Source: Candidatus Iainarchaeum sp.
GTDB taxonomy: Archaea; Iainarchaeota; Iainarchaeia; Iainarchaeales; CSSED10-239
Direction: 5' to 3'
Length of the DNA: 6,138 nt
NCBI GenBank assembly: GCA_028693335.1
Contig: JAQUVR010000039.1
Location: 1-6,138, forward strand
The notes beneath the pieces are model-generated. The model ran no database searches and was not told the DNA's origin. It saw nothing but the letters and a program-made list of their open reading frames with translations. Of the stretch, positions 1 to 6,138 are shown piece by piece. Within the stretch, counting starts at the first letter, position 1, and the number at the start of each line of letters is the position of its first letter. The position numbers were made by a program, and so were the translations under genes.

Positions 1-3000
1 TTTCATAAGCATAGATTGCAAATCTAAATTTGCCAATTTTATCAGCACCCTCAAAAGCAGGATCTACTTCTTCTAGTGAATCATCTAAGGTTGGATAGAA
101 CTCTATTTCCTTATAGATCTGATCTCCGTTTTCTAACCTTTCATAGATCTCACTCTCTTTTGGGACTGTAAACATTATTGGTTTTTTTCCTGCTTGTTCT
201 GGCCAAATGGTTTCATTATATTTACATACAACTGTTGCAATATAACTAAAATTAATTTTATTTCTTCCTGGCCATTTTCCATTACATTTTAATTTAAATT
301 CATAATAGTCTCCATTGTCTACAGTTGTTACAACAGAATCACAATCAGAATCTGATAAAGTCTTATACTCACCTGAATCTCCATCAGATTTTCTTTCAAA
401 ATGCGTGTATACATTATATGGTTCCATAAATCCAAGGCCAGTACACTTTGGTATAGATGTATTCATATGTTTATCGGACGCTAATTTACCATTTGTGACC
501 CACACAACTTTTCTATTATAAACATAATTTTTTGAACCGGTGATATCAAAAATATTAATATAGCTTTTCTCTATATTATCATTACCAATAATTATTGTTT
601 TATTTAATCCATCTATTGGCAAATTATAAATTTCTGACACATCTAATACTTTATCAACGATATTTAGATCATAATCACTACCAATTGGCGCAACAATAAA
701 TAAAATTGATGCCGCCAATAAAACAGCACCAGCAATCATCCAACCAACACCAACAAAAACAACTAATCCTGCCAAAGCAGGGATCATACCAACTATAAAA
801 CCACCAGCAAATACCGCTGTTGCTGTACTTCCAATTAATTGAGACCAATCTTCGGTTGAATTTTTCATTTTTGATTTTTCATTAAATAACATTTTACCAA
901 TTGCACTACCATTTGGATCATTATTAATTGGATTCATAAAACTGCTAAATCCAGTATACCCAGAAACATATTCAGCATAATCCCAAGGAGTTGTATTAGT
1001 ATCTTTATTTAACAACTTAACAGTTGGACTTCTGTAAACTCCATCAGTATTCTTTGTAACCTGAATAAATGGATCTTCCATATATAACAAATCTTGAACA
1101 TTAACTTTTAATTTCTTTTCAACAGTAGCACCAGACATTGGTATTCCTTGAACACTTAATGGTTTTATTTTTACTAAAATCACATAACCACCAGGAACCT
1201 CTGGTTTAACAATTCCAACATCTTGAGATGTTTCTCCAATATTAAAAGAAACTTTGTTTTGAGAAACTCCTGTCATGTTTGTATAATTTAATGCTTGACA
1301 TCCAGCATATTCTTTATACTCTCCACAAAAAGTAACTTCAAATCTTGCTTTATCAGAACAATTGTTTTTTAGAGTAAATGTTTTTGGATCACTCATATCA
1401 TCAATTGTTTTTTCAAATGGAATTACTAATTGATTATTTATTTTTTTACCATTTTCAAAAAACTCAATACAATCTGCAATCTGTAAAACAGATATATCTG
1501 TTTTTAGAGCAATTTCTTTTGATCTATTTACATAAGTTAAACCATTATTTGTTTCTATTTGTGCATTAATATAGATCTTTGATTTAATATCTGCAAACTT
1601 AGCACCATAAGAATTATATCTTAATGTTGCTCTATAAATTCTTGGTCTTGGTTCAATATTTGTAATTATTGTTTGATAAGATCCTTCTGATAATGTTACG
1701 CTTTTATCCTCAATTCTTAAAGTATAATTACCATATCTATCTCCATCTTGAGAGATCTTTGCTCTTATATTTTTTAATGTAACCTCTTGTTCATCATTTC
1801 CTTTTGCTACACAATTATTAATAATATTAAAACTAATTTCTTGTTGACCATTGCCAGAAATTATTGTTTGCCATGTATCTGGCGCACCCTCAATAGTTAA
1901 ACAATCATCAACATCAACACCATCTCCAACAGACACTTTAATATTTGTTGGAATCTCAAAATTGAAATTTGAAGTTGAACCAACTCTTGAAACTCTTGCA
2001 GAGATTGAACCAATGACATTTATTGTTTCAAAAAGATCTGTTGTTTGAGTTGGACTTGCTTTAATTAATAATTCTTTTTCTCCATTTGCAGGAATTACAA
2101 AAGAATCATTTACAACTTGTGAATTTAGATTATTTAATGTTAGTGAAATATTTACAAACTCAGAATTTGTAAAAGAAAAATCACTTGGTAAAAATGATTT
2201 TAAAACAAGATCATAGTTTGTTTTATTTTTTAGAGTTACTCTCTCAATCTTTCCATCAACATTTGTTTTGTGAACATTTATAATTAATGGATTTTCTAAA
2301 GTAATTAATGAATTCTCTTTTCTTGCCTCAATAACATCCTCAGACACAATTATTTCTACTGGTGTTGCATAATACATTGCTTTTTGAATTTCAATAATTA
2401 TTTTTTCATTAACATATAATGCTGGCATATTTATTTGAGCAACACCCTCTTGGTTAGTTCTATATATTCCAGATGTTACTGTGTGTGTGTTATTTCCTAT
2501 TTTTTGATAAATATTAACAATACCATCAACAACAGGATTACCTTGACTATCCCTTGCAGAAACAGTTAGAACAAATGGTTCTCTTGGAACAATATTTTGT
2601 GGTTCATAATAAATATTAAATTGATATTGCTTGCTTACTCCAACAGTTATTGCCTTATCATAAACAATTGCTTGATTTGCTAATATTCTGTGATTTAATT
2701 TAGTTGTGCCTATTGATATTGGAGTCAATTCTAGATTTACGGCAAGACGATCATAAACATTTATTTGAGGAATAACTAAATAATCAGTATCCTCTGGAAT
2801 CTTGTGTCTTGGTGTTGATTGTGTTCCTCTTGTTTGATTTATTAATCCTGATAAAGAATATTTTTTTATGTCAATTGCTTGTGCAAGAATTTCAGTAGAA
2901 GAAGAACCGCTTTCAATATTTTTTATTGAAAATCTTGCTTGTGAGTAACTATTGCTTTTTGCATTTGTTATTGTGTAGTCTAACTTATAATCTTTGTTAA

Positions 3001-5398
3001 CCATTGTAGAAATATTTAAAGAAGAAGTTAGATCTTCAGATAAATTTTCAGACAAATCAATTAATTGACCAGATATACAAAAACTATCATCACAAAGTTG
3101 CTCTGCATCAATATAATATATTTTTTGCTCTCTAAAACCAGTATTGTTAGTAGAAGAATATCCTAAGTAAAAGACAGGAACTGCTTGACCTCTTGTTGCA
3201 GTTGATACTTGAACTGGAACTGTTATTTCATAAACACCATTAGGCATAGAACTATAATAAATATTTGCAAGCTTTGCTGGCGTGCCTGATGGGATTGGAG
3301 AATCATAAGCGTTTTCTGATTCATAATAGGTTATTTGTCCAAGATTTTGTGTAATTGGTCTAATAAACACAAAATCATCATTGACATTTTCAGCACCACC
3401 AATAATAAATTTAAATCCAAAGTTTACATTGTTTCCTGTATTTGGAGAAACAACTCTAAATTTAAAGTTATATTGCTTATTTTGTGATAATGATTGTACT
3501 TCTCTATCATTAGTTACATCAAAAACTCCAAGATAATCAATTATTGGCAAATTGTTTTCTTGTGATCTATAAAGTACAATTTCTTTGTTTGTTGTTTGGT
3601 TTTTTAAAATTGGTATTAAGTTTGTATAATAATCTAAATATCCTTCTTTACTTATTTTTAAATAAACAATTTTATCTGCTTTCAATTGTCTAGAATAAGT
3701 GCCAGTATTGGTAGAAGAATCAGAACCTAAAATTGTTCCATCTGAATTTATTATGGTTATTTGTGCATTTGAAACAACATCTGTATATGTGTTTTTAATT
3801 GTTAGATTAATAGTTCCATTTCCAATAATAACATTAACAGATTTATTACTATCTGTTGGAGGTGTGTGATTAAATCTTTCAGATTCTCCATCAACAACAG
3901 ATTTTCTTAATTTAATAAAGTAATTTCCTTTTGGAACATTCTCAAATGTTGCAGATCCATTATTATCTGTAAGTATTGGATCAAATCTTGCATCAATAAA
4001 TCCAGTATTGGCATCATAAATTAACAACGTTGCTCTATTAACAGATAAATTATCTTCATCTTTTGCAACAATATTTATTTTTGCAACATTACTTTCAGTT
4101 ATTTTTTCTAAAAATACAGTGTATTCATTTATATTTGGACTAATTAATCTGGAAGCGTTTATATACTTTTTTGCATTAACAACAATAGTATAATTTTTAT
4201 TATTTTCAATAACAAAATTTACTCCACCAGCAGCATATGCTCTAACATCTTTTGTTAGATTTCCATCTTCTAATATCTTAACAATAATTTCTTCTTCTAG
4301 ATCTATTATTTCTGAAGAGTTAAGTAGATCTTTTACTATGACTTTTATTTCTCTTGTAACAATAGTAGTATCAATAACATCTCCATCATTTGGATTTATG
4401 TTGTTTGCTGTTGCTGAAACTAATATAACACTTTCAGTTAATTTATCTTTTTCTACAGTTATTCTTTGCTCTGCTGATTGATATCTTCCTCTAATATCAT
4501 TAGTAGAAACAATGTATTCTCCAACTTCTAAATCTTTAAAATAAACAGCACCAAATGGTGTTTCTTTTGTTGAAACAGGATTAATTGTGTCTTCTTCTTT
4601 AAATATTCTAACTTCTATTCCATCTAAAATATTTGTTCCACTTTTAACAAATATTTTTGCTTCTCCTTTTCCTAAACTTAATTGTTCACTTAATCTATCA
4701 ATTAACAATTGATTTTGGTTTTCAGATAATAAAATATTTTGTGCAAAATAAGTACTTGATGATGCACTTGCAATAATCTTTCCACAATTAATTGGAACTT
4801 CTAAAGTTATCATTCCTTCTGTTGATTGAGAAGCTGTTGGTGTTATTACTTCATTTGTATTTTCACAAGTTATTGTAAGTGCTACATTTTCTTTTATTAA
4901 TTCTTTTGTTTGGCTATCTATTAACATTAAGCTTTTTGTATATTTTTGTGGTAACTGGTATATTTCTAATGTTATTCTGTGTTCTAATTGATTAGGATCT
5001 ATTGACACAACTGTTCTTTTATAACCAGTTCTTTCTAAAAAAAAATCATATAATTTTTTTGAATCTAATGATATTATTGCTTTACCAGTTCCATCTGTTT
5101 TTATTTCTATATCTCTATTCTCTATAACATCTTTAATTATAAATGAAAAATTAACTAATATATTTCCACTATTATCTGCTAACTTAATAACAACATCATT
5201 ATATGTTGTTTTTTCTTTTATTGATGATAATGGATTAAATATAAAAAATAAAATAATCAAAACAACTAAAATAAAAACAAAAAAAGAAGTTAATGGATTT
5301 TTTTTATCAAGAGGACCAGTTAATGATTTAATTGGTAATCTTTTATTTATTTTTTCTAAAAAGTTTTGATAGTTTTCTGCAAATTTTGACATAGCCAT
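1..5398 (-). CDS. Giant (>=1,799 aa, C-terminus beyond the window) membrane-anchored multi-beta-sandwich surface protein; putative adhesin-like; no named family recognised
   Basis: I scanned plus-strand triplets in the register 2-4, 5-7, and so on. There is no tta/cta/tca (reverse-complement TAA/TAG/TGA) anywhere from 2 to 5458. The first upstream in-frame stop is TAA at 5459-5461. The ATG at 5396-5398 lies 8 nt downstream of TAAGGATGT (5407-5415), an 8/9 match to the canonical Shine-Dalgarno UAAGGAGGU. There is no stop before position 1, so the C-terminus is outside the window. Codon bias is uniform (TTA Leu, AGA Arg, AAA Lys, CCA Pro, GTT Val). Translation starts MAMSKFAENYQNFLEKINKRLPIKSLTGPLDKKNPLTSFFVFILVVLIILFFIFNPLSSIKEK and reaches the window edge at ...GADKIGKFRFAIYAYE. 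It is absent from the supplied ORF track, apparently because it has no stop inside the window. Confidence 0.9.
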   Translation of the reverse strand, partial: MAMSKFAENYQNFLEKINKRLPIKSLTGPLDKKNPLTSFFVFILVVLIILFFIFNPLSSIKEKTTYNDVVIKLADNSGNILVNFSFIIKDVIENRDIEIKTDGTGKAIISLDSKKLYDFFLERTGYKRTVVSIDPNQLEHRITLEIYQLPQKYTKSLMLIDSQTKELIKENVALTITCENTNEVITPTASQSTEGMITLEVPINCGKIIASASSSTYFAQNILLSENQNQLLIDRLSEQLSLGKGEAKIFVKSGTNILDGIEVRIFKEEDTINPVSTKETPFGAVYFKDLEVGEYIVSTNDIRGRYQSAEQRITVEKDKLTESVILVSATANNINPNDGDVIDTTIVTREIKVIVKDLLNSSEIIDLEEEIIVKILEDGNLTKDVRAYAAGGVNFVIENNKNYTIVVNAKKYINASRLISPNINEYTVFLEKITESNVAKINIVAKDEDNLSVNRATLLIYDANTGFIDARFDPILTDNNGSATFENVPKGNYFIKLRKSVVDGESERFNHTPPTDSNKSVNVIIGNGTINLTIKNTYTDVVSNAQITIINSDGTILGSDSSTNTGTYSRQLKADKIVYLKISKEGYLDYYTNLIPILKNQTTNKEIVLYRSQENNLPIIDYLGVFDVTNDREVQSLSQNKQYNFKFRVVSPNTGNNVNFGFKFIIGGAENVNDDFVFIRPITQNLGQITYYESENAYDSPIPSGTPAKLANIYYSSMPNGVYEITVPVQVSTATRGQAVPVFYLGYSSTNNTGFREQKIYYIDAEQLCDDSFCISGQLIDLSENLSEDLTSSLNISTMVNKDYKLDYTITNAKSNSYSQARFSIKNIESGSSSTEILAQAIDIKKYSLSGLINQTRGTQSTPRHKIPEDTDYLVIPQINVYDRLAVNLELTPISIGTTKLNHRILANQAIVYDKAITVGVSKQYQFNIYYEPQNIVPREPFVLTVSARDSQGNPVVDGIVNIYQKIGNNTHTVTSGIYRTNQEGVAQINMPALYVNEKIIIEIQKAMYYATPVEIIVSEDVIEARKENSLITLENPLIINVHKTNVDGKIERVTLKNKTNYDLVLKSFLPSDFSFTNSEFVNISLTLNNLNSQVVNDSFVIPANGEKELLIKASPTQTTDLFETINVIGSISARVSRVGSTSNFNFEIPTNIKVSVGDGVDVDDCLTIEGAPDTWQTIISGNGQQEISFNIINNCVAKGNDEQEVTLKNIRAKISQDGDRYGNYTLRIEDKSVTLSEGSYQTIITNIEPRPRIYRATLRYNSYGAKFADIKSKIYINAQIETNNGLTYVNRSKEIALKTDISVLQIADCIEFFENGKKINNQLVIPFEKTIDDMSDPKTFTLKNNCSDKARFEVTFCGEYKEYAGCQALNYTNMTGVSQNKVSFNIGETSQDVGIVKPEVPGGYVILVKIKPLSVQGIPMSGATVEKKLKVNVQDLLYMEDPFIQVTKNTDGVYRSPTVKLLNKDTNTTPWDYAEYVSGYTGFSSFMNPINNDPNGSAIGKMLFNEKSKMKNSTEDWSQLIGSTATAVFAGGFIVGMIPALAGLVVFVGVGWMIAGAVLLAASILFIVAPIGSDYDLNIVDKVLDVSEIYNLPIDGLNKTIIIGNDNIEKSYINIFDITGSKNYVYNRKVVWVTNGKLASDKHMNTSIPKCTGLGFMEPYNVYTHFERKSDGDSGEYKTLSDSDCDSVVTTVDNGDYYEFKLKCNGKWPGRNKINFSYIATVVCKYNETIWPEQAGKKPIMFTVPKESEIYERLENGDQIYKEIEFYPTLDDSLEEVDPAFEGADKIGKFRFAIYAYE
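2..685 (-). other. Post-hairpin domain of the giant protein (aa 1572-1799+), four cysteines, unassigned fold, continues beyond the window
   Basis: The sequence IGSDYDLNIVDKVLDVSEIYNLPIDGLNKTIIIGNDNIEKSYINIFDITGSKNYVYNRKVVWVTNGKLASDKHMNTSIPKCTGLGFMEPYNVYTHFERKSDGDSGEYKTLSDSDCDSVVTTVDNGDYYEFKLKCNGKWPGRNKINFSYIATVVCKYNETIWPEQAGKKP... has Cys at aa 1652, 1686, 1705 and 1725. It also contains an acidic Asp/Ser-rich loop, SDGDSGEYKTLSDSDCDS. Confidence 0.5.
686..829 (-). other. Charge-free Gly/Ala-rich hydrophobic segment of ~48 aa (aa 1524-1571); probable transmembrane hairpin
   Basis: STATAVFAGGFIVGMIPALAGLVVFVGVGWMIAGAVLLAASILFIVAP contains no charged residue. It is long enough for two helices with a tight VGVGW turn and has small-xxx-small motifs such as G1533-x3-G1537. 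Acidic sequence flanks it on both sides (NSTEDWSQ upstream, GSDYDLNIVD downstream). Because of its GCN/GGN codons it is locally the most GC-rich stretch in the window. Confidence 0.65.
1079..2311 (-). other. Three consecutive ~135-150-aa modules sharing a (V/F)TLKN strand (aa ~1030-1440); CARDB/PapD/ASH-like beta-sandwich candidates
   Basis: VTLKN occurs at aa 1054-1058 (nt 2225-2239), VTLKN at aa 1206-1210 (nt 1769-1783) and FTLKN at aa 1341-1345 (nt 1364-1378). Spacing is 152 and 135 aa. Each motif sits in a context of the form 'x-(V/F)-T-L-K-N-x-(polar)3-5-hydrophobic strand', for example ERVTLKNKTNYDLVLKS and KTFTLKNNCSDKARFEVTF. That is the hallmark first-strand motif of CARDB / choice-of-anchor-D / ASH-type folds. 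Modules 2 and 3 carry 2 and 4 cysteines respectively. Confidence 0.45.
2339..2638 (-). other. Bacterial-Ig-like (Big/invasin-type) beta-sandwich module (aa ~921-1020)
   Basis: The sequence VSKQYQFNIYYEPQNIVPREPFVLTVSARDSQGNPVVDGIVNIYQKIGNNTHTVTSGIYRTNQEGVAQINMPALYVNEKIIIEIQKAMYYATPVEIIVSE contains the pattern 'x-L-T-V-S-A-x-D-x-x-G-N-P-V-x-x-x-x-V' plus 'T-N-x-x-G-V-A'. That pattern resembles Big_1-type domains. Recognised by eye only. Confidence 0.45.
3563..5209 (-). other. Tandem array of about six divergent carboxypeptidase-regulatory-like / Ig-like beta-sandwich modules (aa ~64-612)
   Basis: Units of about 70-90 aa recur. Each has alternating-hydrophobic strands, a central T-(D/N/K)-x-x-G-x-hydrophobic turn and a distal G-x-Y-hydrophobic strand. 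Examples: TDGTGKAIISL (aa 101-111); TKETPFGAVYFKDLEVGEYIVST (278-299); AGGVNFVIENNKNYTIVVNAKKY (390-412); TDNNGSATFENVPKGNYFIKL (477-497); TNTGTYSRQLKADKIVYLKISKEGY (563-587). This pattern is typical of CarboxypepD_reg-type domains. The assignment rests on motif recognition only, and there is no nucleotide-level repetition. Confidence 0.5.
5231..5293 (-). other. N-terminal signal-anchor transmembrane helix of the giant protein (aa 36-56)
   Basis: LTSFFVFILVVLIILFFIFNP is 21 uncharged, strongly hydrophobic residues. It follows a 35-aa tail containing 7 Lys/Arg (KINKRLPIKS...DKKNP). By the positive-inside rule the N-terminus is cytoplasmic and the rest of the protein is external. I see no signal-peptidase or pilin-type cleavage motif. 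Confidence 0.7.
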
Positions 5399-5406
5399 AA
5401 TTAATA

Positions 5407-5415
5407 ACATCCTTA
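5407..5415 (-). promoter_or_regulatory. Shine-Dalgarno ribosome-binding site of the giant gene
   Basis: The minus strand reads TAAGGATGT, matching UAAGGAGGU at 8 of 9 positions. An 8-nt spacer (TATTAATT) separates it from ATG 5398. The ATG embedded in this motif (5408-5410) is in frame, but it is more likely part of the SD than a start codon. Confidence 0.6.
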
Positions 5416-5416
5416 A

Positions 5417-5429
5417 ATATATATATATA
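5417..5429. repeat. (AT)6A dinucleotide repeat between the promoter candidate and the SD
   Basis: atatatatatata is read directly at 5417-5429, which is 19-31 nt upstream of ATG 5398. Confidence 0.8.
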
Positions 5430-5444
5430 ATTTTTAAAGATAAA

Positions 5445-5473
5445 AAGATATTTAAAGGTTACTAATCAATCAA
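5445..5473 (-). promoter_or_regulatory. Candidate promoter of the giant gene (readable as bacterial -35/-10 or as an archaeal TATA box)
   Basis: The minus strand reads TTGATT (5468-5473), a 17-nt spacer, then TATCTT (5445-5450), which resembles a sigma70-type promoter. The same stretch contains TTTAAATA (5449-5456), matching the archaeal TATA consensus TTTAWATA. That box would place a transcription start near 5424-5428, upstream of the SD. I cannot tell which model applies, and AT-rich spacers produce such matches easily. Confidence 0.35.
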
Positions 5474-5477
5474 AGTT

Positions 5478-5507
5478 AAAAAATTAAGAAATAGAAAAAA
5501 AAAGAAA
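5478..5507 (-). terminator. T-tract terminator candidate for the upstream gene (no convincing hairpin)
   Basis: Directly after the TAA stop, the minus strand reads TTTCTTTTTTTTTCTATTTCTTAATTTTTT, which contains a T9 run and a T6 run. I could not find a GC-containing stem. The signal therefore looks more like archaeal oligo-T termination than a classical bacterial intrinsic terminator. Confidence 0.35.
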
Positions 5508-6138
5508 TTAGTTTTTAATACAGCCTTCTGTTTCGCTATCTAATCTCTTTATTACTTCATTTGTTAAATCATCAGAAATTGCTTTAGGATTATAATAAAC
5601 TGATAATTTTGTTGCACTTGGTGAAACACATGCTTTTTTTTCTGATACTAAATTATATATGTCTTTTAAAGATTTAATATCATTTACTAAAGCATTCCTA
5701 AGTTCAACACTTTCTGATGCACTCATTAATGATACTTGTTGATTTGTGGATGATCTTTGACTTAAAATATAGAAATATGCTTCGTCATCTTTTGAATCAA
5801 TTACAAGTCTACTAATACCATCAACTGCTTGACCTGTTTTATAGTTTGTTGGTGTGTAAAATATTGTATATAACCAAACATTACCATATCTATTAATCTC
5901 TTCCTTTGGCCATTCAACACCATAACTAAATCCTTGGCTTTGTGTTGTTGGTGCTAATCTTGATTCAGTTGCAACAATATCTCTTGTTCCTAAATATCTT
6001 TCAAGTTGTGGAACTCCTTCAAAGTCTCTACAATTTGCAAAACCTGTCCAATAGGTTAAAACATTTCCAGTGTTTGCAATTATTCCGCCTTCGTTTGGTG
6101 GAGATCCAAGTGATAGTTTGTAGAATGCAAGTGCATTA
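5508..6138 (-). CDS. Hypothetical protein, C-terminal >=209 aa (N-terminus beyond the window); family not recognised
   Basis: The frame of the listed 72-aa ORF (5508..5726) stays open upstream of its ATG all the way to 6138, with no tta/cta/tca in the register 5511-5513 ... 6135-6137. Translation: ...NALAFYKLSLGSPPNEGGIIANTGNVLTYWTGFANCRDFEGVPQLERYLGTRDIVATESRLAPTTQSQGFSYGVEWPKEEINRYGNVWLYTIFYTPTNYKTGQAVDGISRLVIDSKDDEAYFYILSQRSSTNQQVSLMSASESVELRNALVNDIKSLKDIYNLVSEKKACVSPSATKLSVYYNPKAISDDLTNEVIKRLDSETEGCIKN*. The TAA stop is at 5508-5510. No SD-like motif precedes the internal ATG at 5726. Codon bias matches the neighbouring gene. Confidence 0.8.
   Translation of the reverse strand, partial: NALAFYKLSLGSPPNEGGIIANTGNVLTYWTGFANCRDFEGVPQLERYLGTRDIVATESRLAPTTQSQGFSYGVEWPKEEINRYGNVWLYTIFYTPTNYKTGQAVDGISRLVIDSKDDEAYFYILSQRSSTNQQVSLMSASESVELRNALVNDIKSLKDIYNLVSEKKACVSPSATKLSVYYNPKAISDDLTNEVIKRLDSETEGCIKN

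Follow-up and report, generated by a model that had tools for sequence, protein, structure and literature searches.

A phylum-wide family of giant, membrane-anchored proteins in Iainarchaeota with a probable stalk-and-head architecture

Can a single stop-free run that fills most of a short stretch of archaeal DNA be a real gene, and if so, what might a protein of such size do for the cell that makes it? This question is raised by 6,138 nucleotides of DNA from Candidatus Iainarchaeum sp. (contig JAQUVR010000039.1 of GenBank assembly GCA_028693335.1, positions 1 to 6,138 of the forward strand), a stretch that is referred to here as the window. The organism belongs to the Iainarchaeota (formerly Diapherotrites), a DPANN group placed in the kingdom Nanobdellati in the NCBI taxonomy. 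A preliminary description, made from the sequence alone, had pointed to an uninterrupted minus-strand frame that runs from position 5458 to the left edge of the window. The analysis reported here establishes that a gene for a giant protein begins in the window, which covers 72% of it, and that this gene is real, conserved and under purifying selection. Near-certainty attaches to the gene, to its location and to its architecture; a function in adhesion or host contact, which the architecture suggests, is much less certain.

On translation, the minus-strand frame from 5458 to 2 consists of 1,819 sense codons with zero stops, just as the preliminary description had claimed, and a TAA at 5459-5461 closes it upstream. 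In a six-frame count over the whole window, the same frame has 18 stops, all of them outside the open run, and is open over at most 1,820 consecutive codons; the other five frames have 110-233 stops each, with longest open runs of 45-210 codons. Given that the base composition predicts a stop at 9.2% of codons, 1,819 stop-free codons would be expected by chance with P ~3e-77. The frame is missing from the mechanical list of open reading frames, whose longest entry measures 72 amino acids (aa), because that list excludes frames that run off the end of the source; the earlier remark that the list hides the gene is thereby explained. A search of 5.8 billion proteins returned six full-length clusters of relatives that cover 97-100% of the query, with identities to the window protein of 92% (P0001, 2,518 aa), 69% (P0002 and P0003), 43% (P0004 and P0005) and 34% (P0006). 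Full-length orthologues measure 2,484-2,519 aa, which bears out the expectation that the protein extends beyond the 1,799 aa encoded in the window. In a codon-level comparison with the closest relatives, found at loci L001 and L007, the ratio of nonsynonymous to synonymous divergence (dN/dS) is roughly 0.0-0.4, and mostly ~0.1, along the whole frame.

These data leave practically no probability for the idea that the long frame is an artefact of chance, of chimeric assembly or of gene decay. Nothing was found in favour of such an artefact, the sole oddity being a jump in divergence near residue 1500. Against it stand the chance estimate, dN/dS values well below 1 on either side of the jump, and an alignment in which the junction region is colinear with the orthologues. 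Furthermore, four sources (Logan, JGI, ENA and NCBI) supply independent assemblies in which the same full-length gene recurs with its neighbours and an unchanged gene order, so that the chimeric join which the preliminary description had raised as a caveat finds no support. The start of the gene can be placed as well. Specifically, the frame holds in-frame ATGs at 5410, 5398 and 5392 (codons 17, 21 and 23 of the translation of 5458..2), and orthologues begin at the position of the second, with MAMSKF, MAGLTF or MSFSEKYQ. A start at 5410 was considered and ruled out, its equivalent at L002, the locus of a 69%-identical orthologue, being followed directly by a TAA. Both observations place the start at 5398, where it had originally been proposed, and the window therefore contains codons 1-1799 of ~2,500.

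Read from its N-terminus, the protein begins with a short tail and a membrane anchor (Table 1). The tail motif forms invariant columns in the family alignment (A1) and also stands ahead of the anchor in the paralogues designated '1827' and '2218', and the anchor itself is present in 93 of the 97 complete giants of the family. The subsequent N-module, a putative stalk of beta-sandwich domains, corresponds to a separate protein of the same gene cluster: in BLASTP, residues ~395-1418 of the window protein and ~294-1454 of the L002 orthologue match L002_1827 with E values of ~1e-36 to 1e-38. Several immunoglobulin-like (Ig-like) families (Big_1, MG4, Invasin_D3) reach sub-threshold Pfam scores in the stalk, and the remaining ~1,100 aa of it have no Pfam match. 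The CarboxypepD_reg match names one domain and says nothing on function, and an NCBIfam scan of the window protein returned no family. Repeat searches of the window found neither tandem repeats with a period of >12 nt nor long direct repeats; as the stalk is without near-identical tandem repeats, the giant is not a 'Periscope protein'.

Between stalk and C-module lies an internal hydrophobic segment in which glycine and alanine make up 27% of the residues. It occurs in 61 of the 97 giants, always at about residues 1450-1600 and directly ahead of the C-module, and in distant members it is followed by a motif of the form DPC...TH.L.DY(V/I)INL. In the 69%-identical orthologues P0002 and P0003 the segment is deleted, with both flanks still aligning; it is thus dispensable and yet recurrent. 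It may form a two-helix hairpin that fixes the chain to the membrane a second time, or it may interact with a membrane in some other way. The possibility that it is a mere signal-peptide relic of a fused C-module gene was set aside, because paralogues that consist of the N-module only also have a Gly/Ala-rich segment after their last homologous domain, and because the position of the segment is conserved across very distant members.

The C-module that follows measures roughly 940 aa in full and lies mostly outside the window, including its conserved head of ~480 aa; the part within the window contains cysteines at residues 1652, 1686, 1705 and 1725. Several lines of evidence suggest that N-module and C-module face the same side of the membrane and both reside outside the cell. 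Classic Sec signal peptides, such as MKYENKTKFLGIILMLTIMLSFVSIPVAA, are found on complete standalone C-module proteins, the internal segment is cleanly deleted in P0002 and P0003, and none of 116 giants has a hydrophobic stretch in its last 60 aa that could serve as a C-terminal anchor. In addition, cysteine columns are conserved along the presumed ectodomain in alignment A1, and N-glycosylation sequons are enriched (32 observed versus 23.2 +/- 4.1 in shuffles). If both modules are indeed outside, the internal segment crosses the membrane an even number of times or never.

The head of the window's own giant lies beyond the left edge, and orthologues that are 92% identical over the 1,799 aa present carry it. 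An AlphaFold2 model of the last 478 aa of P0001, built from a 44-sequence alignment, reached a mean predicted local distance difference test (pLDDT) score of 86.4 and a predicted template modelling (pTM) score of 0.83, and shows a beta-rich body with an alpha/beta part ahead of it on the N-terminal side. For the whole 943-aa C-module, modelled from a 5-sequence alignment, the pLDDT was 41, and only one beta-sandwich stretch is credible. A Foldseek comparison with 350,542 PDB chains and with BFVD gave no match to the head fold at E<=1e-3, the best template modelling scores (TM-scores) being ~0.1-0.15, and searches of PDB sequences with the full-length profile (A1) and with the head profile (A4) gave nothing usable. 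A Pfam scan of 44 head-domain proteins likewise found nothing consistent, the output being four unrelated single matches. Polar residues of the head, R198, N246 and D326 among others, are invariant across these 44 diverse members. The head is a domain that can be modelled with confidence and for which no known relative is detectable.

The region that joins stalk and head stands out by its divergence. Compared with L001 and L007, residues 1-1500 are 94-100% identical, with synonymous divergence (dS) of 0.03-0.31, and residues 1501-1800 are 64-87% identical, with dS of ~0.6; dN/dS stays below 0.5 on both sides. In terms of protein divergence from the nearest relatives, this is a rise from ~3% to 15-35%. 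Against L002, residues 1500-1700 are barely alignable (22-24% identity). The stalk-head junction is therefore the most variable part of the protein. Recombination with a more distant allele may account for the jump in dS, a reading that agrees with the recombination reported for Forterrea populations (PMC5905446).

The giant sits in a conserved, co-directional cluster of tandem paralogues, and it is this cluster that reveals its modular nature. An all-against-all BLASTP comparison identifies a neighbouring protein of 1,729-1,945 aa as a paralogue of the giant's residues ~300-1450; complete copies of it are anchored, and the copy at L006 is a partial, anchor-less fragment. The ~970-aa protein encoded directly upstream is a paralogue of residues ~1760-2464, and a downstream protein of 2,136-2,220 aa contains both modules. 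This module paralogy implies that the fused giant also exists in split form, as two adjacent genes, one for anchor plus stalk and one for the C-module, which constitute a natural case of gene fission or fusion. In the window, as at L001, L002 and L007, the gene upstream of the giant encodes the same C-module-only paralogue. The split pair, with the anchor-and-stalk gene followed by the gene for the secreted C-module, was seen directly upstream of the giant at L002 (1431-9896), L007 (1724-9891) and L006 (1-5211).

The window gene is a new member of an uncharacterized, phylum-wide family that has been noted only in passing. The window protein shares with the family the tail and anchor, full-length colinear homology, the tandem neighbourhood and the internal segment. 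A full HMMER search with the C-module profile against 1.84 billion representatives returned 543 proteins at E<=1e-3, of which 244 reached E<=1e-30; most of the 543 fall into two size classes, one of 2,300-3,100 aa, in which the match occupies the extreme C-terminus, and one of 600-1,100 aa, which comprises standalone proteins and fragments, and the last ~460 aa form the best-conserved part of the C-module. When the C-module alignment was run against one genome per GTDB species, 212 loci were confirmed, 75 of which were kept. Nearly all of these are named Candidatus Iainarchaeum, Diapherotrites or 'archaeon', and they include Candidatus (Ca.) Iainarchaeum andersonii and the complete genomes of AR10 and Ca. 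Forterrea multitransposorum. Four loci bear other record names (L072, L081, L033 and L060: two Micrarchaeota, one Thaumarchaeota and one Chloroflexi), and they are probably mis-binned or mis-named contigs. The head domain is present in all 82 loci of the collection, with two to three copies in ~20 kb in 58 of them. The 90% cluster of the closest relative includes MDD3244741.1, recorded as 'Candidatus ainarchaeum sp.', and the public names that were looked up read 'hypothetical protein' or 'carboxypeptidase regulatory-like domain-containing protein'.

What, then, might such a protein do? The architecture is a variant of the stalk-and-tip theme of surface proteins, and the earlier expectation of a surface or interaction protein accords with the N-terminal anchor, the beta-sandwich Pfam domains and the Sec signal peptides of standalone paralogues. 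We consider it rather probable that the giant is a membrane-anchored surface protein of Iainarchaeota, of ~2,500 residues, whose stalk presents the head for adhesion or cell contact. In the corresponding model, the N-terminus would reside in the cytoplasm and the first helix would anchor the chain in the cell's own membrane. The array of beta-sandwich domains, ~1,450 aa in length, would act as a stalk that could reach tens of nanometres if it comprised ~15 domains of ~95 aa. Presented by this stalk on the outside of the cell, the C-terminal head would bind a ligand on another cell or surface, and such binding would amount to the attachment of a reduced-genome symbiont to its host or partner. 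The internal segment would either re-anchor the chain as a two-helix hairpin or engage a membrane, and the coexistence of split and fused versions would suggest that stalk and head work together.

Several points weigh against this model. Its topology is drawn from hydropathy scans and comparative logic, and an odd number of membrane crossings by the internal segment would put the C-module in the cytoplasm wherever the segment is present, at odds with the signal peptides that the standalone paralogues carry. Pfam support for the stalk comes from three beta-sandwich stretches only, one of them below threshold. At the tip, no recognized adhesive domain was found, the head being without a match in Pfam, PDB or BFVD, and the term 'adhesin' therefore derives from architecture and context only. 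Binding, its ligand and the symbiotic lifestyle of the lineage are matters that we infer, and the proposal that some Diapherotrites are free-living (quoted in PMC5905446) weakens the case for host attachment.

The main rival is a structural role in the envelope, in which the paralogues would jointly build an outer coat such as a surface layer (S-layer). A phylum-wide family with, usually, several copies per locus (at least two in 58 of 82) would suit such a role, as would the enriched sequons, the membrane anchor and Ig-like beta-sandwich domains of the kind that many archaeal S-layer proteins contain (bioRxiv 10.1101/2024.05.28.596244). At ~2,500 aa, however, the giant is far above the typical size of an S-layer protein, and divergent paralogues with a hypervariable segment suit recognition better than a crystalline lattice. 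Moreover, characterized archaeal S-layer proteins typically have a C-terminal membrane anchor, of transmembrane or PGF-CTERM type, and an anchor at this end occurs in none of the 116 giants. The envelope role is unlikely, though it commands more credence than the proposals that follow. One of these turns on the internal segment: once the head has bound, the segment would enter the membrane of the partner in the manner of a fusion peptide or loop and start a bridge or pore through which metabolites could be taken up. It is free of charged residues as well as rich in Gly and Ala, it spans ~40-55 aa at a position conserved among proteins that are only 25-30% identical, and ~1,450 residues separate it from the anchor of the protein itself; DPANN symbionts, furthermore, need metabolites from their hosts (PMC5905446). 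The likeness to fusion peptides is nevertheless one of composition only, about one third of family members, including close orthologues, are without the segment, and the head domain, which alone was compared, has no fold match among viral fusion proteins. The same data are explained by a simple two-helix hairpin that sits in the membrane of the producing cell, and membrane insertion is given a low probability.

A slightly lower one still attaches to a surface-displayed enzyme, in which the head would be a hydrolase, for instance of glycans or cell walls, carried at the end of a long stalk for the breakdown of polymers or of a partner's envelope. Other ultra-small or predatory prokaryotes are known to have giant surface enzymes, and the invariant polar residues of the head also speak for this idea; yet there is no match to enzyme families in Pfam, NCBIfam or PDB sequences, no fold match in PDB or BFVD, and no recognizable catalytic motif. 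The boldest version combines several of these elements into a host-contact machine specific to Iainarchaeota, in which a head of new fold, carried on a stalk tens of nanometres long, recognizes the partner, the junction segment inserts into the partner's membrane and the metabolically dependent archaeon gains a bridge or pore, with split and fused paralogues as interchangeable parts. This scenario is a long shot, on a par with membrane insertion as such. The preferred reading continues to be that of an anchored stalk that presents a head for adhesion or cell contact.

Beyond the giant itself, the window contains a second gene that the preliminary description had left unmentioned. On the same strand, a frame of 210 codons runs from 6137 to a TAA at 5508-5510, cut off by the right edge. 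Its product is 98% identical to that of the upstream gene at L001, 83% identical to L002_980 and, in BLASTP, 27% identical to residues 2353-2497 of the giant P0001. By these similarities, the upstream gene is predicted to encode the secreted ~970-aa C-module-only paralogue, with the fragment in the window as the end of its head domain. The window accordingly holds parts of two related tandem genes.

Table 1 Features of the window, with coordinates on the forward strand and the basis of each assignment
Feature	Coordinates	Strand	Basis or content
Partial coding sequence, codons 1-1799 of the giant surface protein	2..5398	-	Runs off left window edge; stop-free, homology, purifying selection
N-terminal tail, ~36 aa, predicted cytoplasmic	5291..5398	-	Motif F.E.YQ.F.EKIN.R.PIK..T.P.DKK.P common with paralogues
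N-terminal membrane anchor TSFFVFILVVLIILFFIF	5237..5290	-	Hydropathy peak 3.2 at aa 32-62
N-module, putative beta-sandwich 'stalk', aa ~62-1500	899..5215	-	Paralogous to separate '1827-aa' cluster protein
SpaA/prealbumin-like beta-sandwich, aa 254-321	4436..4639	-	PF17802, E=4.3e-6, 27.2 bits vs cut-off 23.1
CarboxypepD_reg beta-sandwich, aa 529-609	3572..3814	-	PF13620, E=5.9e-11, 43 bits vs cut-off 32.3
Big_1/MG4-like beta-sandwich, aa 938-1002	2393..2587	-	PF17789 E=0.013, PF02369 E=0.021; weak, below Pfam thresholds
Diverged stretch, aa ~1500-1799, mosaic or hypervariable	1..900	-	Comparison with L001/L007
Internal Gly/Ala-rich hydrophobic segment, aa 1521-1576	671..838	-	Hydropathy 1.8-2.6; no charged residue
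Start of C-module, first ~223 aa, Cys-containing	2..670	-	Aligned with P0001 aa 1576-1784; conserved Cys columns
Intergenic region	5399..5507	-	Oligo-T 5495-5507, TATA-like TTTAAATA 5449-5456, (TA)n 5417-5429, AAGGA 5410-5414
3' end of upstream gene, last 209 codons + stop	5508..6138	-	Translation; C-module-only paralogue

The intergenic region between the two genes (Table 1) hardly differs from its counterparts at L001 and L007, and L002 preserves it well; the TATA-like box, the AAGGA motif and the ATG are conserved at all three loci, and the oligo-T run is among the conserved elements. The TATA-like box would be an archaeal promoter, AAGGA a weak Shine-Dalgarno motif and the oligo-T run, which directly follows the stop of the upstream gene, a terminator. 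The preliminary description had named a strong Shine-Dalgarno motif as start signal; the motif is present, and it is conserved in the 69%-identical orthologue at L002, but 'strong' was an overstatement, as the motif is short and its spacing of 11 nt ahead of the ATG at 5398 is long. Of the two candidate signals, the TATA-like TTTAAATA suits the role of an archaeal promoter better than AAGGA suits that of a start signal. Between box and start lies a run of (TA)6-7 (5417-5429), where L002 has 6 extra bases as well as substitutions.

The orthologous loci place these genes in a wider neighbourhood. The downstream paralogue with both modules (L002 21525-27455; L005 20634-26540; L007 21624-27560) carries a lysine-rich N-terminal extension of ~110-130 aa ahead of tail motif and anchor, which is predicted to be cytoplasmic. 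Two more proteins with signal peptides, of ~600 aa and 710-810 aa, are encoded between the giants (L002 17544-21504; L001 9494-13421; L018 13088-15517) and have no Pfam or PHROGs match; the larger of the two was seen in 15 loci, the smaller in none but the closest 6. Paralogues that consist of the N-module only end in cysteine-rich extensions, which the fused giant is without, and in one such protein (L006, ~1-2220, C-terminal part) ~11 tandem 'DEPV' repeats precede the cysteine-rich tail. In AR10, the cluster adjoins genes for a family B DNA polymerase (PolB) and a methionine aminopeptidase (MetAP), and PHROGs has no match for the giant or three neighbours and hence offers no support for a viral origin. 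Together, these observations indicate that the cluster is chromosomal and not viral.

The results bear on a broader problem, as the ways in which DPANN archaea attach to and take up material from other cells are largely obscure outside a few cultivated pairs, and the host dependence of Iainarchaeota is itself unsettled. Against this background, a phylum-wide family whose usually tandem copies occupy several percent of a tiny genome offers concrete experimental handles: a confidently modelled head that matches nothing known, a split/fused pair that suggests an interaction between stalk and head, and a hydrophobic segment with a testable topology. If the head were indeed a module for partner recognition, its variation could allow host range to be predicted from metagenomes.

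How does the giant compare with known systems? Fibrillar adhesins of bacteria (Monzon & Bateman, cited in PMC9704523) are likewise single chains with an anchor at one end and a distinct domain at the far end, and their array of Ig-like beta-sandwich domains (SpaA, Big and CarboxypepD_reg types) would have its counterpart in the putative stalk of the giant. The placement of the anchor opposite the tip is found in the giant as well, with its N-terminal helix and no C-terminal anchor, although the type of anchor is unlike the bacterial ones. Specifically, the bacterial proteins use a sortase motif or an outer-membrane barrel and have known adhesive tips, whereas the giant is archaeal, is held by an N-terminal transmembrane helix and has the opposite polarity, with a C-terminal tip that matches no known adhesive domain. 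It further differs from them in the extra hydrophobic segment between stalk and tip and in the divergence of its stalk domains. With archaeal S-layer glycoproteins, the giant shares the character of a secreted, probably glycosylated envelope protein rich in beta-sandwiches, but it is much larger, has no C-terminal anchor, and comes with multiple divergent paralogues and an unmatched head. Fusion proteins are a further point of reference; for the head domain, which alone was searched, Foldseek found no match to a fusion-protein fold (class I-III, fusexins) in PDB or BFVD.

Further parallels come from DPANN archaea. The SPEARE proteins of Nanohaloarchaeota, for which a role in host interaction was proposed, are likewise giant and membrane-anchored; they measure 3,000-8,500 aa, are mostly extracytoplasmic and contain adhesion-type domains (Hamm et al. 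2019, PMC6642349). They differ in their serine-protease, laminin-G and cytoplasmic type III restriction-enzyme domains and in an anchor that is usually near the C-terminus (PMC6642349); none of the SPEARE domains is among the Pfam matches of the window protein or of full-length P0001, and no sequence relationship was found. Apart from the SPEARE work and the S-layer survey, nothing that bears on the giant family was found in the searchable literature beyond one sentence by Probst & Banfield (2018, PMC5905446), who noted a cluster of large membrane-anchored proteins in Ca. Forterrea multitransposorum as likely cell-cell interaction proteins, with no domain analysis. This cluster belongs to the same protein family and the same kind of locus as the window giant. 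In the Forterrea genome (CP045477.1, locus L018), a 2,466-aa homologue with ~40% identity over the C-module is flanked by a 964-aa C-module-only protein and a 2,147-aa paralogue, and we infer that this locus lies inside the 42-kbp region described in PMC5905446. To that brief notice, the present analysis adds the module structure of the giants, their split and fused paralogues, the internal hydrophobic segment, the distribution of the family across the phylum and a head domain unmatched among known folds.

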